A stretch of DNA of 64,000 nucleotides from a virus. Location of the stretch: positions 64,001-128,000 of IMG/VR virus record IMGVR_UViG_3300027793_000055; one strand, given 5' to 3'. Under the pieces are notes generated by a model. It was not told the DNA's origin and did no database searches. It saw only the letters and a list, made by a program, of their open reading frames with translations. Position numbers and translations under genes: made by a program. Of this stretch, positions 53,131 to 63,121 are shown piece by piece; position 1 is the first letter of the stretch; each line of letters starts with the position of its first letter.

Positions 53131-54450
53131 TCAAAGTACTTTTGCTGCCAAACTTGCGACAGCACTACGTTCACCCTTTTGCAGACTGACGTGGCCAGCT
53201 AAAGATGCTGTTTTAAACTTTTCTACAGCATATGCAAGTCCATTGCTTGTATCATTAACATATATGTTATCAATCTGTTCAATATCACCAGTTAATACAA
53301 TCTTTGTACCTTCACCAACACGAGTAACAATTGTTTTCAACTCGTGAGCAGTAAGATTTTGTGCCTCATCGATAATCATAAAAGCTTTTGCAATTGAACG
53401 ACCACGAATATAGGTAAGGGCTTCAATCTCGATAACACCTCTTGTCATATAATCTTGCAACGTTGCTTTATCATTCCCGAGAAGGAACTGCAAGTTATCC
53501 TGAATTGGTATCAACCAAGGCATCATCTTCTCTTCGAGAGTACCCGGCAGGAAGCCTATATCGCGTCCTAATGGCTGAACTGGTCTTGAGACTATCAGAC
53601 GAGTATACGTCTGCTTTTCAAGCAACTGAGCCAATCCTGCTGCGACTGCTGATAGAGTCTTGCCGGAACCAGCCTTACCAACCAATGTAACAATTGGTAC
53701 ACTTGGATCCATTAATAAGTCAAAAGCAAAACTCTGTTCACGATTTCTGGATTCAACACCAAATACAGCTTTGTTTCTACCTTTAAAGTCTGGTACCTTT
53801 TTCAAGGGCAATTCTTTTCCTAAGAATCTAGCTAGAGCGGTTTTATTAGCATTTTTATTTGATATAAGTGTAATAAACTGATTTGGAAATAGCTTATCAG
53901 CTTGTTTTTCTTCCAAAGTCAATCCTTCACCGCTATATAGTCTCTCAATAAACTCATCATCAACAACCAATTCACATATACCACTGTACAATTCACTTGA
54001 ATCAGAAATAACCTGACTGGCTTCATATGACTCGCTTTGCAAACCAATTGCATCGCAAATAACACGCATATTAACATCACGTGAAACAACGACGACCTTT
54101 TTATCTAAATGTGCTTTAGATACAGCGTATGCAGTTGCAATAATTACATGATCTGGTACCGATAAATCTAGATCTTTTGGAAAATGTGATGCATCAAGGG
54201 CAGCAGATTTTAAAACTCCTTTACCTTTCTGAATTCTAACTCCTTCTTGAAGGGAACCAGACTCTCTTAGTGTATCAAGAATTTTAATAGAGTTACGCGC
54301 ATTTTGGCCTACTGAATCTTGTCTGTTTTTATGTTTATCGACTTCTTCTAGTACTTTTAGAGGGAGTACGATATCGTCTTTTCCAAAAGAAAAGATAGAA
54401 TTGGCACTTGTTAAGAGAACACTTGTATCTAGAACATATATTTTTTTCAT
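53131..54450 (-). CDS. phoH: PIN-domain PhoH-family ATPase (PhoH2/YlaK type)
   Basis: YVLDTSVLL PIN N-terminus; GKAGSGKT, SRPVQPLGRDIGFLPG, YIRGRS, IIDEAQN, GDIEQID. Confidence 0.95.
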   Translation of the reverse strand: MKKIYVLDTSVLLTSANSIFSFGKDDIVLPLKVLEEVDKHKNRQDSVGQNARNSIKILDTLRESGSLQEGVRIQKGKGVLKSAALDASHFPKDLDLSVPDHVIIATAYAVSKAHLDKKVVVVSRDVNMRVICDAIGLQSESYEASQVISDSSELYSGICELVVDDEFIERLYSGEGLTLEEKQADKLFPNQFITLISNKNANKTALARFLGKELPLKKVPDFKGRNKAVFGVESRNREQSFAFDLLMDPSVPIVTLVGKAGSGKTLSAVAAGLAQLLEKQTYTRLIVSRPVQPLGRDIGFLPGTLEEKMMPWLIPIQDNLQFLLGNDKATLQDYMTRGVIEIEALTYIRGRSIAKAFMIIDEAQNLTAHELKTIVTRVGEGTKIVLTGDIEQIDNIYVNDTSNGLAYAVEKFKTASLAGHVSLQKGERSAVASLAAKVL

Positions 54451-54485
54451 ATTGTACCTTTAGGTTTTCGAACACTAGTTATTTT

Positions 54486-55280
54486 ATGGTCACTAAACAC
54501 ATCTTAAAACTAGCTGTTCTTTTATTGTCTGTTTTATCATTAAACTGTACTTCACATACAAATTGTCTTGGTTTAGGTGATATTAAAGACTCAATAATAA
54601 ATATTACTCATACTCATAATAAGACAGTACTTCCTTACGATTCTTTTGTTAAGTTGATTAAAAACGTTTCAGATAAGAATGGAAATATTTTATTTTCTTC
54701 AGTTGCTTCAGGAGTCATACTTTCACATGGTAGTAACCATACAAAAATTTTAACTGCGCGACACTTCTGTGTTGGTTTAGAGAGTAAAGTAGATACAATT
54801 CCAGAAGAACTATTTCCCATAAAAGATGATACAACCATTATTGATGTAAAAAATGAAATACATAACATGTTGTTTTATGCATTTGATGATAAACACGATA
54901 TATGTGTTGTATTGACAAAAAAAATAGAGCAACCGGCAACTATAATATCACCGGTTGCTCCACTAAGAGGAGAAAAAGTTTTTAATATAGCTGCACCGCT
55001 TGGCATCTCAGATGGAAAAGCGGTGCTTTTATTTGAAGGATATTATGCTGGCGATTTTTATTCACCGCTAATTCGTTCAAACTCTTCCCTATATTCCATA
55101 CCCACAAAGAGCGGTAGTTCCGGTTCTGCAATCTTCAATGAACACGGAGAATTAATAGGTATTACCTATGCTGGTGTAAGTGAATTTGAAAATATCTGTA
55201 TTGCAGTACCCTGGAAAGATCTTAAAAGATTTATAGAATTTATAGAATCAGCACCGATACCTGATCTAGATATTGAATAA
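54486..55280 (+). CDS. Trypsin-like serine protease with signal/lipoprotein-like peptide
   Basis: MVTKHILKLAVLLLSVLSLNC; TARHFC (His), DICVV (Asp), KSGSSGSAIFN (Ser); ACTAGTTA motif 5 nt upstream of ATG 54486. Confidence 0.85.
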   Translation: MVTKHILKLAVLLLSVLSLNCTSHTNCLGLGDIKDSIINITHTHNKTVLPYDSFVKLIKNVSDKNGNILFSSVASGVILSHGSNHTKILTARHFCVGLESKVDTIPEELFPIKDDTTIIDVKNEIHNMLFYAFDDKHDICVVLTKKIEQPATIISPVAPLRGEKVFNIAAPLGISDGKAVLLFEGYYAGDFYSPLIRSNSSLYSIPTKSGSSGSAIFNEHGELIGITYAGVSEFENICIAVPWKDLKRFIEFIESAPIPDLDIE

Positions 55281-55351
55281 GCTGCTTATTGGATTTGCGC
55301 CAATCTCTGAGCATTACAAGTGCTCTGCATCGCTATCTATGCTTAAGCAGC
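55280..55351 (-). tRNA. Atypical tRNA-Thr(UGU)-like cloverleaf
   Basis: GCTGCTT-AA-GCAT-AGATAGCG-ATGC-A-GAGCA-CT[TGT]AA-TGCTC-AGAG-ATTGG-CGCAAAT-CCAAT-AAGCAGC-T: all 21 stem pairs are Watson-Crick, canonical arm lengths, 72 nt; non-canonical A8, D loop without GG, T loop CGCAAAT; no CCA. Confidence 0.75.
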
Positions 55352-55374
55352 ATACTTCTATCTAGTAGATATAA

Positions 55375-55908
55375 TTAAAAACCTACAATTTGTTTAGTCG
55401 CTTCATATAAAAAAATATTTGCTGCTTGACTTGTATTTAAACAAAAACCAATTCCTGGCATATTAATAAAGATTTTTTGACTATTATTTAATATATCTGC
55501 TGGAATTCCAATTTGTTCGTGACCAACAACAATACAGATCTTTTTAAAATCTGTTAGATCATTCTTGAAATTATATTTATGAATTGAAACAGCTTCTGGG
55601 TCCAATTCTGCGCTAATAACTTTAATGTGGTTATTTTTACAATATTGTAGAAATTCATGAGGATTACTAAACTGATTAATTGGTACATAATCTTGTAACG
55701 TACCGGATCGTGTTGCGAGTGTTTTTCTTTTTGGTACTGACCCAATAACATTCACGGCTGCAGCACCAAAACAAGCCGCACTACGTAATACAAATGCTAC
55801 ATTAACTTCTTCTTTAAAATTAACAGTACAAACTTCGATTGGTAATCGAGTTGAAATATTTTGTTTATTATTATAGCGTTCACGACGTGTTTGATTACGG
55901 TTTGTCAT
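55375..55908 (-). CDS. SpoU/TrmH-family (SPOUT) RNA 2'-O-methyltransferase
   Basis: NVAFVLRSAACFG (motif 1), VVGHEQIGIP (motif 2), IFINMPGIGFCLNTSQAANIFLYE (motif 3). Confidence 0.9.
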   Translation of the reverse strand: MTNRNQTRRERYNNKQNISTRLPIEVCTVNFKEEVNVAFVLRSAACFGAAAVNVIGSVPKRKTLATRSGTLQDYVPINQFSNPHEFLQYCKNNHIKVISAELDPEAVSIHKYNFKNDLTDFKKICIVVGHEQIGIPADILNNSQKIFINMPGIGFCLNTSQAANIFLYEATKQIVGF

Positions 55909-55941: not shown

Positions 55942-56015
55942 TGGTTGGGGAACTAGGATTCGAACCTAGATAAACGGAATCAAAATCCGTTGTCCTGCCG
56001 TTAGACGATTCCCCA
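55942..56015 (-). tRNA. trnQ: tRNA-Gln(UUG)
   Basis: TGGGGAA...ACGGA-TT[TTG]AT-TCCGT...CTAGGTTCGAATCCTAG-TTCCCCA-A-CCA; U1-A72. Confidence 0.95.
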
Positions 56016-56018
56016 TAA

Positions 56019-56049
56019 GTACAAAACCCACATAAAGTGGGTTTTGTAC
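56019..56049. terminator. 13-bp perfect hairpin directly upstream of tRNA-Gln (terminator or processing signal)
   Basis: GTACAAAACCCAC-ATAAA-GTGGGTTTTGTAC. Confidence 0.6.
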
Positions 56050-56069
56050 AATTTTAAATTTTATTTAAA

Positions 56070-56315
56070 TCAACGAGCGCGATAAACAGTAACCTGATGA
56101 CGGGTATTACGATTTAGTTCGGTACGATTAGTTGGGCGTAGAGTACCTTCAGAAATTAGATCACGGAAGGCTTTGGTAACAAATCCACCACGTTCTGATC
56201 CTTCAAAATGAAGGCGCATTACATTTACAACATCAGCAGCAGATACAGTACCATTCTCTAGAACACGTGAACGAATTTCGGACTTGAGATAGGTAAGAGC
56301 GCGATTTGATGACAT
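56070..56315 (-). CDS. Small basic winged-helix-like protein
   Basis: 81 aa, TVSAADV...FVTKAFRDLISEG.L.P wHTH-like pattern; AAGGA RBS. Confidence 0.55.
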   Translation of the reverse strand: MSSNRALTYLKSEIRSRVLENGTVSAADVVNVMRLHFEGSERGGFVTKAFRDLISEGTLRPTNRTELNRNTRHQVTVYRAR

Positions 56316-56361
56316 ATTTATTTCCTTAGTAAATAACTTTTTTAGAGAAAGTTTAAACTCT

Positions 56362-56447
56362 TGGTGGGAAGTGAGAGATTCGAACTCCCTAAAGCAATGC
56401 CGTCAGATTTACAGTCTGATGTAACTCGCCATCGTTACCGACTTCCC
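56362..56447 (-). tRNA. trnY: tRNA-Tyr(GUA)
   Basis: GGGAAGT...TCAGA-CT[GTA]AA-TCTGA, long variable arm, GGGAGTTCGAATCTCTC-ACTTCCC-A-CCA; unusual C8/C14. Confidence 0.95.
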
Positions 56448-56451
56448 AAAT

Positions 56452-56904
56452 TTATTTATTTCTACCAGCGTAAGTATCAGTTTGACTATGACAATTTGGA
56501 CAAAGTATTCTTAAGTTTTCTAATCTATTATCAGAATTGTTGCCATTAACATGATCAAGTTGAAGAACAATCTTTTTTCCATTCCAAGTGTCTTGTAGAC
56601 CACATTCAGAACATTTATTTACAATTAATTTTTCTCTTATTAATCGTTTTTTTAATTTACAAGTTTGATATGTGGAATTTTCTACTAATATATCTTTTAA
56701 AGATTGAGATTTACTCCAACTATGTGACTTTCCTTTTAAGTGGCCTTGTCCAGTAAAATGCGAAGTATCTAAATTAAATTGTTTTATTTTTCTTTGCAAA
56801 ATTCTATAATTTCCACCTATTGGCTTAAGATCTAATTTTTTTAATACTTGTGCATATGAAAAACTCTCTTTAACTATTTCTTGTAATTTATCTTTTTCAT
56901 TCAT
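56452..56904 (-). CDS. HNH endonuclease (free-standing homing endonuclease candidate)
   Basis: CSECG..WNG..IVLQLDHVNGNNSDNRLENLRILCPNCHSQT; true ATG at 56904 (the ORF-track extension overlaps tRNA-Leu). Confidence 0.9.
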   Translation of the reverse strand: MNEKDKLQEIVKESFSYAQVLKKLDLKPIGGNYRILQRKIKQFNLDTSHFTGQGHLKGKSHSWSKSQSLKDILVENSTYQTCKLKKRLIREKLIVNKCSECGLQDTWNGKKIVLQLDHVNGNNSDNRLENLRILCPNCHSQTDTYAGRNK

Positions 56905-56907
56905 TTT

Positions 56908-56985
56908 TGGTGGGTACGGTGGGATTCGAACCCACACTGTATTGATTTTAAGTCAACTGTCTCCTACCGGTTGGACTACATACCC
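56908..56985 (-). tRNA. trnL: tRNA-Leu(UAA), short variable loop
   Basis: GGGTATG...GTTGA-CT[TAA]AA-TCAAT-ACAGT-GTGGGTTCGAATCCCAC-CGTACCC-A-CCA. Confidence 0.93.
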
Positions 56986-56991
56986 CTGGTT

Positions 56992-57234
56992 TTAATGAAT
57001 CGTTTTTAGTCCGTCTAGCTCCTCTTGCAGCTGCCGCACCATCATACCAAGATCTTCAGCTTCTGTCAAGAGGTCGTCATTTTCTTTTTTAAGGTTTAAG
57101 TTTTCTGTTTTAATTTTAACAAATTCAGTCGAAATTTTTAAGTAATTAACAAGAAGATATTTTAAAGTATCTTCAATTTCAGGCATTTGTTTGATAAAGC
57201 TAACAATTTGATCAGTTTTTTCTTTTGTAATCAT
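56992..57234 (-). CDS. Hypothetical coiled-coil protein
   Basis: 80 aa, heptad pattern, between two tRNA-Leu genes. Confidence 0.65.
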   Translation of the reverse strand: MITKEKTDQIVSFIKQMPEIEDTLKYLLVNYLKISTEFVKIKTENLNLKKENDDLLTEAEDLGMMVRQLQEELDGLKTIH

Positions 57235-57240
57235 AATTTA

Positions 57241-57327
57241 TGGTGCCGGAAGAGGGGGTCGAACCCTCATGCTATTGCTAGCAGCAGATTTTGAGTCTGC
57301 CGTGTCTGCCAGTTCCACCATCCCGGC
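57241..57327 (-). tRNA. trnL: tRNA-Leu(CAA)
   Basis: GCCGGGA-TG-GTGGAACTGGCAGACAC-G-GCAGA-CT[CAA]AA-TCTGC, long variable arm, GAGGGTTCGACCCCCTC-TTCCGGC-A-CCA. Confidence 0.97.
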
Positions 57328-57336
57328 GTATGCCCC

Positions 57337-57365
57337 ATCTTAGCACGGGGCAGGCGATCTGTCAA
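57337..57365 (-). promoter_or_regulatory. Sigma70-type promoter for tRNA-Leu(CAA)
   Basis: TTGACA-N17-TAAGAT with extended -10 (GTGC); -10 ends 9 nt before tRNA G1. Confidence 0.85.
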
Positions 57366-57371
57366 GAGCAG

Positions 57372-57569
57372 TCAGTCTTCATCACTATCAAATTCTTGCC
57401 ACTCATCTGTTGCTCGGCGATTAAAGCCATATTCTACCCAATCATTAAGCAATTTAAACCACTCATGAGCATTGCGATTATGAAATGTACCTGAATGTAC
57501 ATTCTCTTCAAATTCTACTAGGTCTTCTTGAATCATTTCTAGGAATGTTTCAACATCAATCTTCTTCAT
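57372..57569 (-). CDS. Hypothetical acidic protein
   Basis: 65 aa, ATGA-coupled in the operon. Confidence 0.65.
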   Translation of the reverse strand: MKKIDVETFLEMIQEDLVEFEENVHSGTFHNRNAHEWFKLLNDWVEYGFNRRATDEWQEFDSDED

Positions 57570-57889
57570 TTAACTACCGACCATCCTTGTTTTTTTAGGG
57601 TTTCTAACTGTTCATTTAACCATTTATCATTTGGTTCTTTTGAACGTAAAATAAGTTTTTTATTTTCTTGTGAAATAGGAAAAGCTATATGCATCAAGCC
57701 AGATAAGCCGGCTAATGATACTGTTTTAACACGAAAAATAATTCCACTATCTAATATTTCCATACCATGTTGTGGTACAAATGCTGCTTCCATATATTTA
57801 CGGAGTTTAATACGCTTTTGTCCAACGTGTGTATCGTTAATTATTTCAATTAAAAATTCTAGTTGAGTTTTGTTTGACATAATTTTCAC
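57566..57889 (-). CDS. Hypothetical protein
   Basis: 107 aa, 4-nt overlaps at both ends. Confidence 0.65.
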   Translation of the reverse strand: MKIMSNKTQLEFLIEIINDTHVGQKRIKLRKYMEAAFVPQHGMEILDSGIIFRVKTVSLAGLSGLMHIAFPISQENKKLILRSKEPNDKWLNEQLETLKKQGWSVVK

Positions 57890-58152
57890 CAGGTATCATA
57901 TTCTGTTACATCAAATTCTTTATTTGTATACGTATGTATAACTTTTGTTACTGTTCCTATTGAAGTTGGAATAAAAATATATCTTATTCCACCACCTATA
58001 GCGCCATAATATGCATATTTACCGCCACAAGTTAAATCATACCACTCATCAAAAGTCATAGTATTTTTTTGTTCTTCTATAACTTCTTGATCAATTTTTT
58101 TTAACCACTTATTAATCTTTTCTTGTTGCTCGCTGGTTAATTCAAATTTCAT
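57886..58152 (-). CDS. Hypothetical phage protein
   Basis: 88 aa, YYGAIGGGIRYIFIPTSIG; coupled to neighbours. Confidence 0.7.
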   Translation of the reverse strand: MKFELTSEQQEKINKWLKKIDQEVIEEQKNTMTFDEWYDLTCGGKYAYYGAIGGGIRYIFIPTSIGTVTKVIHTYTNKEFDVTEYDTW

Positions 58153-58574
58153 ATTGATTGCTCTGGACAGGAAAGTATTTCTATTCCTCTTTTCTTGAGA
58201 AGATCTAAACCCTTTTCACTGCGATATGGTAGACAATAAATTACTTTTTTAATATTAGAATTAATTATTAATCTAGCGCAAACAGGACAAGGAGCGTGAG
58301 TTATATATATCTTCCTAGGTCTTGGATCATTATAGTTCATTTTTGCTATGGCATTAACTTCTGCATGAATGAAATTTGAACAGCCAGGTTCTAAACTATC
58401 TGGCTTATTATCTCCACCTTTTTCATCGCCATTATAACCAATAGCTAAAACGGTTTCATTATCTTCCGTGACAATAACAGCGCCCACTTTTAATCGTGGG
58501 TCATTTGAGCGGGTTGCGATATCATTTGCAAGTCGCATCCAGATATCATCCCAAGATAGTTTAAATTTACGCAT
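58149..58574 (-). CDS. dCMP deaminase (cytidine/deoxycytidylate deaminase family)
   Basis: WDDIWMRLA...KVGAVIV...GYNG...IHAEVNAI...THAPCPVCARLII; start taken at ATG 58574. Confidence 0.92.
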   Translation of the reverse strand: MRKFKLSWDDIWMRLANDIATRSNDPRLKVGAVIVTEDNETVLAIGYNGDEKGGDNKPDSLEPGCSNFIHAEVNAIAKMNYNDPRPRKIYITHAPCPVCARLIINSNIKKVIYCLPYRSEKGLDLLKKRGIEILSCPEQSI

Positions 58575-58857
58575 CGCCTTTTTTCTGCTGAACCGAACCA
58601 AGTTCTTGGCTTATTAATGACAAGAGATATTTTTCTGCACTGCTCTTTGTCATTTCTATAGCTTCATTATCGACATTTTCATTTCTTAATTTAAACTCAA
58701 AATAACCAGTTACAGTCAATAATGATGAATAAACTAACAATACTGATTGTGGATCTTCATCGTGCAAATTATAATACACAGCTTCAGTAATATCAGAAAT
58801 ACATTTTTGTATTCTTTCTGATAATTCAAATATCTTTTCGTATTCGTCGTCTTTCAA
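58567..58857 (-). CDS. Hypothetical protein
   Basis: 96 aa acidic ORF, TTG start overlapping the upstream stop. Confidence 0.6.
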   Translation of the reverse strand: MKDDEYEKIFELSERIQKCISDITEAVYYNLHDEDPQSVLLVYSSLLTVTGYFEFKLRNENVDNEAIEMTKSSAEKYLLSLISQELGSVQQKKGDA

Positions 58858-59006
58858 GACTTGCCTCTAAATTTCTTTTTATAACAAATATCACACAAAC
58901 ATTCACCTTTACAGGTTGTATGTTGAAACTCATTTAAACAAGTATCACACATACGGTGCGGCAGCTTAAGAAATTTACGTAGTAATTTTGAAATAAAATG
59001 TGGCAT
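58854..59006 (-). CDS. Small Cys-rich (zinc-finger-like) protein, 50 aa, not in ORF track
   Basis: MPHFISKLLRKFLKLPHRMCDTCLNEFQHTTCKGECLCDICYKKKFRGKS; two CxxC; TTGA overlap with the next gene. Confidence 0.6.
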   Translation of the reverse strand: MPHFISKLLRKFLKLPHRMCDTCLNEFQHTTCKGECLCDICYKKKFRGKS

Positions 59007-59039
59007 AAGAAATATGATCTGAACTCGATAATGCTAATT

Positions 59040-59116
59040 TGGTGCCCTGTGAGGAATTCGAATCCCCGACCTTACCGGTAGAAACGGTTTGCTCTGTCCA
59101 ACTGAGCTAACAGGGC
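59040..59116 (-). tRNA. trnR: tRNA-Arg(UCU)
   Basis: GCCCTGT-TA-GCTCAGTTGGACAGAGC-A-AACCG-TT[TCT]AC-CGGTA...ACAGGGC-A-CCA; A20 Arg identity element; A27.A43 mismatch. Confidence 0.95.
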
Positions 59117-59122
59117 ATACTT

Positions 59123-59260
59123 TTATTTTCCTAGCAAACGATAAATATCTACAAAACCAACACATTGACCAACTGTCAGACAAACAATTAGTAGGGCCCC
59201 TAGGCCACCAAATTGTCTAAAGAATTCTCTAACGGCACCAGCCCAAGTATCAGGTTGCAT
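59123..59260 (-). CDS. Small membrane protein, 45 aa, not in ORF track
   Basis: MQPDTWAGAVREFFRQFGGLGALLIVCLTVGQCVGFVDIYRLLGK; one hydrophobic helix; overlaps the upstream ORF end. Confidence 0.55.
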   Translation of the reverse strand: MQPDTWAGAVREFFRQFGGLGALLIVCLTVGQCVGFVDIYRLLGK

Positions 59261-59576
59261 TTTGTTTTTCTTTCTCTAGATAGAATTTTTCTACTTTTAC
59301 TCTATGTTGATGTAATAATACAATTAAACGGTTTAAATCGTCCTCTTTGATTGTTGCAATATCCCAATGACCAAATTTGCATTCATAACCAAAGAGGTAT
59401 TTTACGGCTGTTACAAAGCGTTTAAACAAGCCTCTGTACTGGTTTAACTGAATTGAGATATAAAGTTCCGGTGGAAGATCTCTATCCCAAGCATTTTCAG
59501 AAGTAACACGAAAAATGTGTTGTTCACTTTGACAATCACAATCAAAATGATGATTTTCGAAAGTATTGTTATTCAT
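59250..59576 (-). CDS. Hypothetical phage protein
   Basis: 108 aa; FDCDCQSEQH...KYLFGY..KFGHWD. Confidence 0.7.
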   Translation of the reverse strand: MNNNTFENHHFDCDCQSEQHIFRVTSENAWDRDLPPELYISIQLNQYRGLFKRFVTAVKYLFGYECKFGHWDIATIKEDDLNRLIVLLHQHRVKVEKFYLEKEKQNAT

Positions 59577-59592
59577 ATTATTTATATATATT

Positions 59593-59669
59593 TGGTACTC
59601 CCGGTTGGATTTGAACCAACGACTTTCGCCTTATAAGAGCGACACTCTAACCAACTGAGTTACGGGAGC
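59593..59669 (-). tRNA. trnI: tRNA-Ile(UAU)
   Basis: GCTCCCG-TA-ACTCAGTTGGTTAGAGT-G-TCGCT-CT[TAT]AA-GGCGA-AAGTC-GTTGGTTCAAATCCAAC-CGGGAGT-A-CCA. Confidence 0.95.
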
Positions 59670-59706
59670 ACATCCACCAAACCGTCTGGGGCCGATCTGG
59701 TGAACC

Positions 59707-59735
59707 ATCTTAACACGATCTGGGGAGCGCGTCAA
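59707..59735 (-). promoter_or_regulatory. Sigma70-type promoter for tRNA-Ile
   Basis: TTGACG-N17-TAAGAT with extended -10 (GTGT); same architecture as 57337..57365. Confidence 0.85.
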
Positions 59736-59980
59736 GCAGTAGGCGTTTGTTTTTTATTTTTTTTAGATTTCTGCTCAACAACAATTTCTTCTGGCTTTCG
59801 TGATTTAACTACAAATTTACCAGTCGATGGTAGAAATTTTACTTTTGCTTTTAGTCCATCTTTGCTATCAGTAAGCAAATTTTTTCTTACAGAATCCGCT
59901 GTTTCAAAACTGTCACAGACTTTTTCGACTTTCCACGGTTGACCTTGTTTTTGTTCAACCACTTCTTTAAGATCGTTCAT
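59732..59980 (-). CDS. Hypothetical basic protein
   Basis: MNDLKEVVEQKQGQPWKVEK...KFVVKSRKPE; ATG at 59980 with GGAG RBS. Confidence 0.65.
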   Translation of the reverse strand: MNDLKEVVEQKQGQPWKVEKVCDSFETADSVRKNLLTDSKDGLKAKVKFLPSTGKFVVKSRKPEEIVVEQKSKKNKKQTPTA

Positions 59981-60056
59981 ATTGTGCTCCAAAATATTTA
60001 ACGGAATTACAGAGATTCAAAATCGTAATTTCAATTCTTCTGAACTATTTACTGTT

Positions 60057-60710
60057 ATGAAGATGTATAACAGAACTTGTCTTGTTTGTAAATGTAATTT
60101 TCTTAGAAATTCAAGCGATGAAGCTAGCAGAAGAAATAAAAATATGATTTTGGAATTTTGTTCTAAAAACTGTTATAAGCAGTATCAACAAAATTTAAAA
60201 ACCAAAGTCAACTGTCGCAATTGTAATACTAGTTTTTTTAAAAAACAAAATCAAATTTTAAAAACAAAAAATAATTTTTGTTCCAAATCATGCGCGGCGA
60301 CTTTCAATAATAAGAATAAAGTCTTTGGTATTCGACGCTCTAAATTAGAAATGTATATAGAAGAACAATTAAGAAATGATTTTCCATCTTTAAAATTTGT
60401 TTTTAATTCAAAAGAATTGATACAATCAGAATTAGATATTTTTATACCTGAATTAAAATTAGCTTTTGAATTAAATGGAATATTTCATTATGAACCAATT
60501 TATGGTAATTCAAAACTTGATAAAATTCAAAATAACGATAAACAAAAAATTATCGCCTGTTTTGAACAAGGAATAGAACTTTGTATAATTGATACTTCAT
60601 CTTGTAAGTATTTAAATAATAACAATAAAATTAAATATTATAAAATTGTTAAGGACTTGGTCATTCAAAATATTGAACGTGCAGAAAAAACCAACGTGCA
60701 GGTGCCTTAA
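60057..60710 (+). CDS. Zinc-finger plus Vsr/EDxHD-like (DUF559-type) endonuclease; free-standing homing endonuclease candidate
   Basis: Two CxxC...FCSKxC repeats, then ELDIFIPELKLAFELNGIFHY...NDKQK...C...GIEL; antisense to the surrounding operon. Confidence 0.75.
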   Translation: MKMYNRTCLVCKCNFLRNSSDEASRRNKNMILEFCSKNCYKQYQQNLKTKVNCRNCNTSFFKKQNQILKTKNNFCSKSCAATFNNKNKVFGIRRSKLEMYIEEQLRNDFPSLKFVFNSKELIQSELDIFIPELKLAFELNGIFHYEPIYGNSKLDKIQNNDKQKIIACFEQGIELCIIDTSSCKYLNNNNKIKYYKIVKDLVIQNIERAEKTNVQVP

Positions 60711-60720
60711 TTTTTTTCCT

Positions 60721-60805
60721 CGGGCAGAGTGAGATTCGAACTCACGATACCTCTCGGTATGCCGGGTTAGTAATCCGGTGCCGTAAGCCACTTGGCTATC
60801 TGCCC
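60721..60805 (-). tRNA. trnS: tRNA-Ser with ACU anticodon
   Basis: GGGCAGA-TA-GCC-AAGTGGCTTAC-GGC-A-CCGGA-TT[ACT]AA-CCCGG-C-ATACCGAGAGGTAT-C-GTGAGTTCGAATCTCAC-TCTGCCC-G; long variable arm and G73 indicate Ser; A31.C39 mismatch; no CCA. Confidence 0.85.
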
Positions 60806-60848
60806 ACTTTAAGTATCATAAACCAAACTTGAAGGTTTGTAAAGAGGT

Positions 60849-61445
60849 TTATCGTTGTGTCTTATTGCCTTGTGCTGCTGCACGGCGGCGAGTAATTTCG
60901 CTATCTTCTGGACTGATTACGGTTGATTTTGGTTGTTGTCTTTTTGCTCTTCCAATTGCAGTTTGTTTTGCTGCTTGAACTTTAATTCTTTCTTCTTCGT
61001 CTTCATCAGAGTCTTCTTCAGAGTCTTCTTCACCAGCTTCTTTTTTTTGTAGATCTAATCTTGCTTGTGTAATTTCTTCTGGCTCTTCTACTTTCTGTTC
61101 TAGGAAAGCTTTAAACCCGGAAATATTTTCCTTATCTAGACCTATTTTAAATAAAAGATTTTCTATGTAATCGTGCACATGTGTATTTGATATTTTTCTT
61201 CCTGCAATTACATCTTCTTCCGGCGTACCAGTTACAAGACCAGAAGATCTATTTAATTGTGTTCCAAAGTTTTCTATTTCTTGTATTTGAGAAATAATTT
61301 TTGCTTCAGGAGTGTTTGGTTCTGGTTGGAACTCGGTTACAAAATATTTTAAAACATCAACAGCATCTTGATGAATTGTTGATTCGCTTCTTTCTTGCAA
61401 CATATTTTTTTTAAATTCTTGTAATAGTTTTTTCATGTCATTCAT
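60849..61445 (-). CDS. Acidic/basic putative internal head protein
   Basis: N-terminal MKKLLQEF...MLQE; E/D tract and basic tail. Confidence 0.45.
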   Translation of the reverse strand: MNDMKKLLQEFKKNMLQERSESTIHQDAVDVLKYFVTEFQPEPNTPEAKIISQIQEIENFGTQLNRSSGLVTGTPEEDVIAGRKISNTHVHDYIENLLFKIGLDKENISGFKAFLEQKVEEPEEITQARLDLQKKEAGEEDSEEDSDEDEEERIKVQAAKQTAIGRAKRQQPKSTVISPEDSEITRRRAAAQGNKTQR

Positions 61446-61446
61446 T

Positions 61447-62397
61447 TTAAACACCACCTGCACCGGGAGGAGCACTTTTTGCTCTATCTGTTGGTGCCTT
61501 ATTTGGATAAGCTGAACCGGCCGGCTGTTTTCCTTTTGTTAACAAGCGAACCTTCCAACCTTTGCCTTTCTTTTCCATTTCTTTCTGAAAATTGCTTTTT
61601 TCTTCAGCAACAGTTTCTGGTTTTGCTGCCATCTCTTTTGCGTCTTTTTGAGCTTTTCTAGCAGCTTTTTGAAATTCAATTGCAGATAATTTTTTATATT
61701 TTGCTGAATTAATTATCTCTGGATTATCCGAGTCTTTTGCCATTTTCTCTTGAGCCTCTGCAGCCTTTCTTTCAGAATCAGCATCTCTGATCATATTATT
61801 GGCATTACTAACTGCTTGTTGTGCAACAGCTTTTGGATCCTCTTCTTCAAAAAGTTTATGAAGTTCACTTAAAACAATATTTTTTATATATTGTCTATCT
61901 TCTTCCAATAAACCATCATTAATTTCTAACGATTCCGATTTCTTACCCCATTCTTCACCTTTACCAGATGAATCACAATCACTTGGTTTTGGTCTACACG
62001 CAGGATATTTGGCTCTTTTTTCACCTTCTTGTCTACCACATGTTTTACAAGTTTTTTTACCTGTTTCTTTATCTGTTCGACAAGTATTACAATCTACCCA
62101 GCCTTTGCTTTTTCCTTTTCCACCTTGACGTGAAAACCATCCGCTCAAACTACTTTCTTTTTCTTTTTTAAAATCTGGCTTCTTCTTTTTCTTCTCTAAG
62201 AAAAATTCTAATTCTTCTGAAATTATATTTAATATTTCTTCTGTTAATTGTTCTTCTGATAAGCCTTTCCAGATTTTACCTTGGCGACATTTTACAACAG
62301 CACCAGAAGCATAAGCAGATGGCCATACATCATATTTACGTTTTGCAATACGTGTACAGCGGTCGCCTTTCTTCTTCTTCTCAAAAATAATTTTCAT
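61447..62397 (-). CDS. Basic multi-module protein (DUF5872-like), putative internal head protein
   Basis: KYDVWPSAYASGAVVKC and L.GWF...WVDC..CGR...YPACRP modules separated by L/I-x-E(E) linkers; ACTATTTA motif upstream. Confidence 0.5.
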   Translation of the reverse strand: MKIIFEKKKKGDRCTRIAKRKYDVWPSAYASGAVVKCRQGKIWKGLSEEQLTEEILNIISEELEFFLEKKKKKPDFKKEKESSLSGWFSRQGGKGKSKGWVDCNTCRTDKETGKKTCKTCGRQEGEKRAKYPACRPKPSDCDSSGKGEEWGKKSESLEINDGLLEEDRQYIKNIVLSELHKLFEEEDPKAVAQQAVSNANNMIRDADSERKAAEAQEKMAKDSDNPEIINSAKYKKLSAIEFQKAARKAQKDAKEMAAKPETVAEEKSNFQKEMEKKGKGWKVRLLTKGKQPAGSAYPNKAPTDRAKSAPPGAGGV

Positions 62398-62440
62398 AAA
62401 AATAAATAGTGCGTAACACGGTTAATACCACATTACGCAC
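62398..62440 (-). terminator. Strand-specific 14-bp hairpin plus U-rich tail
   Basis: Minus strand GTGCGTAATGTGGT-ATTA-ACCGTGTTACGCAC (three G.U pairs that form only on this strand), then TATTTATTTTT. Confidence 0.65.
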
Positions 62441-62448
62441 CACATTAA

Positions 62449-62655
62449 TCAATCTTGTTTGTTTTCTTGTTCGGCTTTTGCTGCAGCTTCATTTAATGAT
62501 TTAATTACAAATTCTTGAAGTTGTTCCTCAGTTAATTCTTCTACTGTTACTCCGTAACTTTTAGCAATTGCAGCCTCTGCTTCGTCATCTACTTCAAAGT
62601 CTAGAGTAACTGTACCATCACCATTTTCTTTAATACTATCAACTTTAATTTTCAT
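62449..62655 (-). CDS. Small acidic hypothetical protein
   Basis: 68 aa, MKIKVDSIKENGDGTVTLDFE; ATGA-type coupling. Confidence 0.7.
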   Translation of the reverse strand: MKIKVDSIKENGDGTVTLDFEVDDEAEAAIAKSYGVTVEELTEEQLQEFVIKSLNEAAAKAEQENKQD

Positions 62656-63035
62656 TTTACTCTCCCAAAGTCATCTTCGTATCTGATAATATCATCTTCT
62701 CCAAAATAGGTACCGGTCTGAACTTCAATAAATTTAAGTGGTACTGTGCCAATATTTTCAATACGGTGTTTGGTACCAAACGGTATTTTTACTTTATCAC
62801 CAGCCTTCATTGTGAATTTCATTACACCAAGTGTCATTAATCCTGTGCCTTCTGTTATTGTCCATATTTCTTCGCGTTTCTCATGTGATTGCAGACTTAA
62901 GCGTTTTTCTGGATTAACTTCAATTATTTTAACTTTGCAGTTATCGTCTTCATGAAGAATTTTATAATTTCCCCACGGTCTTACTGATGGATCGTTTTGT
63001 TTTTTACGTATTGCTGATATTAGTTTTTTAATCAT
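62652..63035 (-). CDS. Stand-alone mannose-6-phosphate isomerase type II cupin (ManC C-terminal domain)
   Basis: RPWGNY..L...KVK.I.V.P..RLSLQSH..R.E.W...IPFGTKHRIEN...FIEVQTGTYFGEDDIIRYEDDFGR; true ATG at 63035 (the ORF-track extension overlaps tRNA-Ala). Confidence 0.9.
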   Translation of the reverse strand: MIKKLISAIRKKQNDPSVRPWGNYKILHEDDNCKVKIIEVNPEKRLSLQSHEKREEIWTITEGTGLMTLGVMKFTMKAGDKVKIPFGTKHRIENIGTVPLKFIEVQTGTYFGEDDIIRYEDDFGRVK

Positions 63036-63044
63036 AGGTTTATT

Positions 63045-63121
63045 TGGTGGACCCGGAGACAAATCGAAGTCTCGATTCAAGCGTGCAAGGCTAGCGTTAT
63101 CGCCACTTTAACTACAAGCCC
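63045..63121 (-). tRNA. trnA: tRNA-Ala(UGC) with atypical T arm
   Basis: GGGCTTG-TA-GTTA-AAGTGGCGA-TAAC-G-CTAGC-CT[TGC]AC-GCTTG-AATC-GAGAC-TTCGATTT-GTCTC-CGGGTCC-A-CCA; G3.U70 and A73 Ala identity elements; 8-nt T loop, C53-G61. Confidence 0.85.

Follow-up and report, generated by a model that had tools for sequence, protein, structure and literature searches.

A cloverleaf whose stems are perfect, and whose elbow lacks bases that are near-universal in tRNA, raises the question of whether it encodes a working tRNA and, if so, why its core differs. This question is posed by a 72-nt element at positions 55280-55351, on the minus strand, of a 64,000-nucleotide stretch of viral DNA (the window; positions 64,001 to 128,000 of IMG/VR record IMGVR_UViG_3300027793_000055). 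The record comprises 187,750 bp at 34% G+C and contains a T4-type Gp23 capsid gene, and near-identical DNA turned up in the freshwater metagenomes of at least 15 studies; the carrier is a T4-like freshwater phage. An earlier note, written from the letters of the window, had described the element as a tRNA-Thr(UGU)-like RNA with rewritten D and T loops. Our analysis, which draws on sequence, structural selection, and genomic and isoacceptor context, makes it very probable that the element encodes a working elongator tRNA-Thr(UGU), the twelfth tRNA of this phage.

A complete cloverleaf with an exchanged set of core bases

Read from 55351 to 55280, the element folds into a 7-bp acceptor stem, a 4-bp D stem, a 5-bp anticodon stem and a 5-bp T stem, with all 21 pairs Watson-Crick (G-C or A-T throughout), exactly as the earlier note had it. 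It is a free-standing 72-nt unit with a standard anticodon arm and is not embedded in a larger RNA. The D loop has 8 nt (AGATAGCG) and A26 follows the D stem; the anticodon loop, CTTGTAA, supplies U33, the anticodon UGU and A37 A38; and the discriminator is U73. The near-universal core bases U8, G18, T54 and pseudouridine 55 (Psi55) are absent, their positions being taken by A8, A18, C54 and G55, whereas G19, C56, A58 and the G53-C61 pair are retained. The description in the note of A8, A18, a CGCAAAU T loop and a preserved G19-C56 pair was thus accurate.

The identity positions recognized by Escherichia coli threonyl-tRNA synthetase (ThrRS) are G1-C72, C2-G71, G35 and U36. All of them are present in the element, as had been claimed. 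Threonine identity resides in the acceptor stem and the anticodon rather than in the elbow (PMC9976931).

Relatives share the design and preserve the fold

Five sister loci (L001 to L005) were fetched through the protein encoded by the neighboring gene, a SpoU methyltransferase. In L001 the odd element is found at the corresponding site, likewise without an encoded CCA. Of the 72 positions, 15 differ between the two copies. The stem differences amount to five compensatory double changes and two substitutions that yield wobble pairs, and no pair is broken. The cores of both odd loops are unchanged in L001, where the D loop still has AGCG and the T loop CGCAA. In L002 to L004, in contrast, where SpoU is 82% identical, the same slot holds an ARAGORN-detected tRNA-Thr(UGU) whose D loop has GG and whose CCA is encoded, and in L005 the slot is without a tRNA-Thr. 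The occupancy of L001 versus L002 to L004 marks the site after SpoU as a tRNA-Thr(UGU) slot with two alternative alleles. The conventional occupants (L002:3556-3631, L003:3556-3631 and L004:1762-1837) have a peculiarity of their own, a T loop ATCATAC in which A54 and U58 swap the usual T54-A58.

More distant relatives were collected by pattern scans of IMG/VR. A pattern confined to the D arm retrieved seven distinct sequences, each of which had a YGCAW T loop. A pattern for the anticodon, variable loop and T loop, with the D arm left free, returned 16 distinct cloverleaf-compatible sequences, all of which had NGNNAGCG D loops, with AGNNAGCG in all but one. The agreement of the two scans means that the two unusual loops co-occur whichever of them is used for retrieval, so that the proposal that the D- and T-loop changes are coordinated is upheld. 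All scans together yielded 50 distinct relatives, whose T loops begin with CGCAA (28), TGCAA (12), TGCAT (7) or CGCAC (3). A8 is found in 50 of 50 members, although retrieval partly fixed this base, and A37 A38 in 48 of 50.

For a test of covariation, 31 distinct UGU members were aligned without gaps; L023, L084 and L103 stand outside this alignment, since their sequences fall out of the gap-free register through an indel or through divergence in the 3' part. Pairing was found in 98.3% of the 651 stem cells, and 19 of the 21 pairs had changed on both sides (195 cells). None of 500 shuffles reached the observed values, and 3' partners slid by one to three columns paired in only 37-45%. The G1-C72 and C2-G71 pairs are each present in 29 of the 31 members; U33, G35, U36, A37 and A38 are invariant, these positions having been fixed by the search patterns. 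Compensatory change is thus strong, and no accumulation of stem-breaking mutations was seen among the 31 UGU members. Together with the intact stems of L001, this bears out the view that the element is under selection rather than decaying. By these sequence comparisons, the element is neither a product of chance nor one of decay.

A threonine family that completes isoacceptor sets

A scan that left the anticodon free yielded 46 distinct cloverleafs, 41 of which carry a threonine anticodon (UGU in 31, CGU in 9 and GGU in 1); the others have UUU (3), GCC (1) and UCC (1). CCA is encoded right after position 73 in 32 of the 50 distinct members. The relatives lie mostly inside tRNA arrays, and 53 of 64 copies are located within 500 nt of a tRNA called by ARAGORN. 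At 18 loci canonical threonine tRNAs are encoded as well, and in 18 of 18 the odd tRNA supplies an anticodon absent from them, for example an odd UGU beside canonical GGU and CGU, or an odd CGU beside canonical UGU and GGU. Some of these loci are related, and we therefore give counts rather than a probability. The assignment to a tRNA-Thr(UGU)-type gene is hence supported by selection on the cloverleaf, by a score of 47.6 bits with the Rfam tRNA model (see below) and by the threonine anticodons of most relatives.

ACA is the commonest threonine codon of the phage, accounting for 47% of its threonine codons, and the tRNA set encoded in the whole genome (12 tRNAs) includes no second threonine tRNA. 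The other 11 (Gln-UUG, Lys-UUU, Leu-UAA, Leu-CAA, Arg-UCU, Ile-UAU twice, Ala-UGC, Ser-ACU, Asn-GUU and Tyr-GUA) decode codons rich in A or U, in keeping with the A/T-rich codon use of the phage. Two of these anticodons are unusual for bacteria, those of tRNA-Ser(ACU) (60720-60806) and of tRNA-Ile(UAU) (59593-59669, and C1:160882-160958 of the genome).

We propose that the element, closing the tRNA array, would be transcribed together with the SpoU mRNA or immediately behind it. Its 5' end would be cut by host RNase P and its 3' end trimmed by host enzymes. Since CCA is not encoded, and since no class II CCA-adding enzyme was found in the phage, CCA would be added by the host enzyme, and the tRNA would depend on the host for both 3' trimming and CCA addition. 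Some T4 tRNAs likewise rely on host 3' trimming and CCA addition. Host ThrRS would charge the element through its acceptor stem and anticodon, and the charged tRNA would read ACA, the most used threonine codon of the phage, plus other ACN codons by wobble. Its L-shape may be held by an alternative, matched elbow consisting of a (YGNRA)NY T loop, A18 opposite G55, and an outer G19-C56 pair.

Several observations weigh against this reading. Expression, processing and charging of the element are deduced from sequence. Eight of the phage's other 11 tRNAs encode CCA (the second tRNA-Ile(UAU) was not checked), which the element does not, and the apparent lack of a phage CCA-adding enzyme counts on the same side. 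A8, C54 and G55 abolish near-universal contacts and modification sites, so that folding and use by the ribosome rest on a putative structural model. Part of the loop invariance seen in the family stems from the search patterns themselves. A minor point is the folding-energy z-score of the element (-1.27), which is unremarkable; this measure is not informative for tRNAs.

Three freshwater metatranscriptomes contain contigs that span 56077-56297 and 55040-55262, as well as short fragments covering part of the tRNA-Gln gene (about 55944-56008). No contig from these three sets covers the threonine tRNA, which for a 72-nt structured RNA says nothing either way. In the freshwater DNA run X9, a 59-nt unitig at 55295-55353 has a depth of 36, against 12 in its flanks (about threefold), and the tRNA sequence seems to be common to several co-occurring genomes.

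Why gene finders overlook the element

ARAGORN made no call for the element, nor for any of 34 relatives supplied as bare 72-nt sequences; when run on the loci of the relatives, it called the member at L154 alone. The Rfam model RF00005, used with filters, did not list the element in a 9.2-kb search or in a search of the whole genome. With lax filters on 171 nt, however, the same model scored it at 47.6 bits (E 1.2e-9), against a gathering score of 29. The element is missed owing to sequence-based pre-filters and to the reliance of ARAGORN on GG and TTC motifs, while the covariance model itself accepts it; the suspicion that standard scanners might pass over it was therefore justified.

A family model built from the alignment (R1) gave the element 89.8 bits and found it as a single copy in the genome. 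A further scan considered stem pairing, loop lengths and T at position 33, on both strands of all 187,750 bp. It returned seven hits with at least 20 of 21 pairs, namely six known class-I tRNAs and the window element; spurious cloverleafs of this quality were found nowhere else in the genome. Phage tRNA counts and codon-supply analyses are thus probably too low, as this gene and all but one of the tested relatives escape ARAGORN, and the loss of the window gene in filtered Infernal searches makes an understated phage tRNA repertoire probable there as well.

A proposed riboswitch-type elbow and a wider A18/G55 population

The consensus of the T-loops of flavin mononucleotide (FMN) and cobalamin riboswitches is (YGNRA)NY. 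In these RNAs both UGNRA and CGNRA are functional, a C-A closing pair being nearly as good as U-A, and the base intercalating between T-loop positions 4 and 5 is an adenosine in nearly all cases (bioRxiv 10.1101/2022.12.26.521914). In this motif the intercalated adenosine comes from the partner element and contacts the G at loop position 2. The CGCAAAU loop of the element meets this sequence consensus. In a structural model, A18 of the D loop probably stands opposite G55 where G18 would normally lie, and the kept G19-C56 pair would probably preserve the flat outer face of the elbow, the surface used by RNase P and the ribosome for stacking. In the family, positions 16 and 60 covary (A-U in 40, G-C in 5 and other combinations in 5 of the 50 members), which hints at a further pair joining the D loop with the T loop, although the G-C cases perhaps derive from few lineages. 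The AGAG variable loop, U13-A22 and G10-C25 appear compatible with the usual base triples. The earlier note had spoken of a coordinated loss of tertiary-core bases; that description should give way to one of exchange, in which the loops match an alternative T-loop design with an adenosine partner and G19-C56 is kept.

The combination of A18 and G55 extends beyond the threonine family. In a census of the 63 family loci we obtained 399 distinct class-I cloverleafs with at least 20 of 21 pairs. Those with GG in the D loop had U55 in 202 and G55 in 20 cases, and those with AG and no GG had U55 in 17 and G55 in 137 cases, so that the mixed combinations (GG with G55, AG with U55) account for 37 of the 399. 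A18 thus covaries with G55 across the set; about 50 of the 137 AG/G55 cloverleafs are the family members themselves. The G55 set spans about 35 anticodons, and A8 occurs in 63 of 160 G55 sequences, mostly threonine ones. Several G55 tRNAs, up to 21, are present at 34 loci, while 24 of the 63 loci have the threonine one alone. At L130 and L150, both from IMG/VR, all 16 and 21 class-I cloverleafs, respectively, have G55 and none has U55, and the phages concerned may carry entirely rewired tRNA sets. As judged from these sequences, the design defines a class of mainly threonine tRNAs, which belongs within a larger set of phage tRNAs with A18/G55.

The class is found almost only in viral DNA. A strict UGU pattern gave two hits among 185,579 prokaryotic species (one genome each), both on metagenome-assembled contigs beside other tRNA genes; a near-identical, slightly broader pattern gave 40 stretches in IMG/VR. 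One of the two hits (L098:1740-7871, scaffold JAQSWS010000005.1 of a Rariglobus metagenome-assembled genome) lies in a small tRNA cluster between genes with matches to an RtcB RNA ligase (phrog_1075), to an 'RNA-binding protein' of 479 aa (phrog_850) and to a sigma factor, and this contig may be a prophage or a mis-binned phage. A blastn search of the cultured phages in INPHARED, a method of low sensitivity for 72-nt queries, returned only canonical tRNAs or chance matches. In the full-text literature, subscription journals being outside its scope, we found no published description of A18/G55 or A8 phage tRNAs.

These sequences suggest that a tRNA elbow can be built with a riboswitch-type T-loop, although G18-Psi55 and T54-A58 are regarded as near-universal. 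With about 50 distinct natural sequences that have A18/G55, A8, mostly C54/A58, and strong covariation, the family amounts to a natural experiment, and its scaffold could be tried for orthogonal tRNA design.

Genomic neighborhood

The threonine gene is the last member of a tRNA array, with eight conventional genes upstream of it (Table 1). Its position directly downstream of, and co-oriented with, the methyltransferase gene is as described before; 23 nt separate the SpoU stop codon from the start of the tRNA gene, and the two are probably co-transcribed. At the other end, base 55280 is shared by the tRNA, as its discriminator, and by the convergent protease gene, as the last base of its stop codon.

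Table 1 Features of the tRNA-Thr(UGU) locus, in window coordinates.
Feature	Position	Strand	Description
tRNA-Thr(UGU) gene, alternative elbow	55280..55351	minus	72 nt, no encoded CCA; sequence, Rfam tRNA model, family model
Anticodon UGU	55316..55318	minus	Inside loop CUUGUAA at 55314-55320
D loop AGAUAGCG	55331..55338	minus	A14 G15 N N A18 G19 C20 G21; A18 replaces G18
T loop CGCAAAU	55293..55299	minus	C54 G55 C56 A57 A58 A59 U60; fits (YGNRA)NY
A8 A9 connector	55343..55344	minus	A8 replaces near-universal U8
Variable loop AGAG	55305..55308	minus	4 nt; kept in family, D-arm-only scan hits included
SpoU/SPOUT methyltransferase gene	55375..55908	minus	PF00588, E 2.5e-21; directly upstream, same orientation
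Trypsin-like serine protease open reading frame, convergent	54408..55280	plus	PF13365, E 5.3e-9
Eight conventional tRNA genes (Gln, Tyr, Leu x2, Arg, Ile, Ser, Ala)	55942..63121	minus	ARAGORN, Rfam

A special tie between the RNA and SpoU, as substrate or inhibitor, had also been suggested, and this suggestion did not hold up. SpoU is a neighbor only in close sister phages. The best NCBIfam match of the protein is TrmH, a G18 methylase, at 57.8 bits, far under the curated cut-off of 227, and the tRNA lacks G18, the usual target. A functional link to SpoU was therefore dropped. We likewise rejected the possibility that the element is the remnant of a phage attachment site (attP) or integration site: the phage is of a T4-like lytic type (Gp23), the gene is full-length, and no matching cellular tRNA was found.

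Other features of the region are recorded here in their own right. Just past the protease gene and near the tRNA cluster, an open reading frame on the minus strand (53131-54450) encodes a 439-aa protein in which a PIN nuclease domain (PF13638) is fused to a PhoH ATPase (PF02562), the architecture of PhoH2-like RNA helicase/RNases. An 18-bp hairpin followed by a T run (54923-54964, minus strand) lies antisense to the protease reading frame; it has a weak match to the Rfam L20_leader (27.4 bits, under threshold), and no terminator-like site on the strand of the tRNA-Thr gene lies closer downstream of that gene. Between tRNA-Tyr and tRNA-Leu(UAA), a reading frame on the minus strand (56452-56937), whose listed 5' end overlaps the tRNA-Leu gene, has borderline HNH matches under the Pfam cut-offs (20.7 versus 21.4 bits for HNH, 21.0 versus 24.8 for HNH_3), and may be a homing endonuclease within the tRNA array. 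Finally, an 81-aa reading frame without a Pfam match (56070-56315, minus strand) is represented by exact contigs (56077-56297) in three freshwater metatranscriptomes from three studies, for which DNA carry-over is possible.

Alternative explanations and the origin of the exchanged core

The element might also be a tRNA-like decoy or mimic that acts outside translation, binding or titrating the SpoU enzyme, ThrRS or a defence sensor. The absence of U8, G18, U54 and U55, the lack of CCA in the window copy and the adjoining SPOUT methyltransferase gene would fit such a role, which the earlier note had raised. The anticodon loop, however, is fully standard (7 nt) and conserved, CCA is encoded in 32 of 50 relatives, the family fills in a missing threonine anticodon beside canonical threonine tRNAs, sister phages carry a conventional tRNA-Thr(UGU) in its stead, and adjacency to SpoU is confined to close relatives. 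Mimics such as viral tRNA-like structures and the tRNA-like domains of Y RNAs lack an anticodon arm competent for decoding or form part of a larger RNA, and the element has neither property. The decoy proposal thus fared poorly, and we regard it as very unlikely. We rate as even more improbable a main role in cis, in which the RNA would serve as a 3' processing or stabilizing signal ('tRNA punctuation') or replace a terminator at the point where the SpoU transcript runs up against the convergent protease gene. The arrangement invites the idea, in that the element starts 23 nt past the SpoU stop and abuts the stop codon of the convergent gene, with no terminator-like site between the genes and the nearest one on this strand about 320 nt downstream, within the protease reading frame. 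Yet RNAs of this class turn up in many unrelated settings, for the most part tRNA arrays, and a processing signal needs neither a conserved anticodon nor the often encoded CCA. Least credible of all is a decaying pseudogene or a chance cloverleaf. The missing ARAGORN call, the absent core bases and the weak energy z-score are what such a sequence would display, but no stem pair is broken here or in L001 despite 15 differences in 72 positions, covariation is strong across the 31 aligned sequences, the 'defects' are themselves conserved, and the genome holds no spurious cloverleaf of comparable pairing. The comparison with L001, the covariation and the genome-wide scan each contradict this explanation.

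A further proposal accepts the element as a working tRNA and concerns why its core was rewired, not whether it decodes. The modified bases 4-thiouridine 8 (s4U8), 5-methyluridine 54 (m5U54) and Psi55 are made by ThiI, TrmA and TruB, respectively, and A8, C54 and G55 rule them out. With these modification sites and the UUC cut site all absent, evasion or independence of modification is a reasonable hypothesis. The odd elbow might then be an anti-defence adaptation, C54-G55 removing the UUC site of T-loop nucleases such as Cash and, along with A8, the dependence on, or visibility to, TruB, TrmA and ThiI; by our analysis this is a possibility, but an unlikely one. For CbCash, a CRISPR-associated Schlafen (Cash) nuclease, the cut in tRNAs falls directly 5' of U55, and a single substitution of U54 or U55 suffices to abolish cleavage (PMC13462974), so that a C54-G55 loop offers no CbCash cut site; whether phage tRNAs are targeted is left open by the authors of that study (PMC13462974). 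Evasion would also fit the near-restriction of the class to viral DNA (2 hits in 185,579 species genomes versus 40 IMG/VR stretches, the latter with the slightly broader pattern) and the loci at which all tRNAs are of the G55 type (21 in L150, 16 in L130). Against it, 11 of the 12 tRNAs of this phage keep TTC T loops, and 24 of the 63 family loci likewise have a single rewired tRNA. With 11 conventional tRNAs, a broad T-loop nuclease would still stop translation, and broad evasion is thus an unlikely reason in this genome, for which inheritance or exchange of a pre-existing threonine gene of the class is the more economical account. For the class as a whole, one may speculate, with similar reserve, about a second, virus-borne elbow design: a riboswitch-type T-loop docked by an adenosine, which would fold without TruB, TrmA and ThiI, resist nucleases that read U54-U55, and be exchanged among phages as a mobile, 'hardened' tRNA cassette. 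In either case the rewired tRNAs would be direct test substrates for what reads the tRNA elbow in infected cells.

Comparison with known tRNAs and T-loops

A functional tRNA-Thr(UGU) with an exchanged core, which we consider very probable here, has its nearest counterpart in canonical bacterial and phage elongator tRNA-Thr(UGU) (RF00005), such as the tRNA-Thr annotated in Serratia phage vB_SmaM-Kashira. Both share the 7/4/5/5 cloverleaf, a 7-nt anticodon loop with U33, UGU and A37, the pairs G1-C72, C2-G71, G53-C61 and G19-C56, and a place in a phage tRNA array, and the element scores above the Rfam threshold. It differs in having A8 for U8, A18 for G18, C54 G55 for T54 Psi55 and G21 for A21, in the 4-nt AGAG variable loop that gives G15/G48, and in that ARAGORN and filtered Infernal are blind to it. 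The T-loops of the FMN and cobalamin riboswitches resemble that of the element in that CGCAAAU fits (YGNRA)NY, in the presence of both CGNRA and UGNRA within the family, and in the availability of A18 as partner adenosine. The context in the family, however, is a tRNA elbow with G19-C56 kept, and the consensus leaves out 10 of the 50 members, whose fifth T-loop base is T or C (TGCAT, CGCAC).

Functional tRNAs without the standard D-loop and T-loop bases have precedents. tRNA-Pyl and type II mitochondrial tRNAs work without the G18-G19/T-Psi-C elbow (PMC7609411), and the element, for which function is predicted, would join them in this respect. Those tRNAs have shortened D loops or no contact of the D loop with the T loop (PMC7609411), whereas the element has loops of standard size (8 and 7 nt), G19-C56 and a specific, conserved set of replacements, and is carried by a virus rather than by an organelle or an archaeon. 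Phage tRNAs with anticodon-loop changes that are reported to escape tRNA-targeting defences (PMC10264068; PMC11555353) are likewise phage-encoded and differ from host-type tRNAs at a nuclease-readable site; in the element the change lies in the elbow, and in one tRNA of its phage. With respect to the wider A18/G55 tRNAs, finally, the element stands single among 11 conventional tRNAs and belongs to a tight, threonine-centred subclass that adds A8, U13-A22, the AGAG variable loop and mostly C54 to the shared A18/G55 design.

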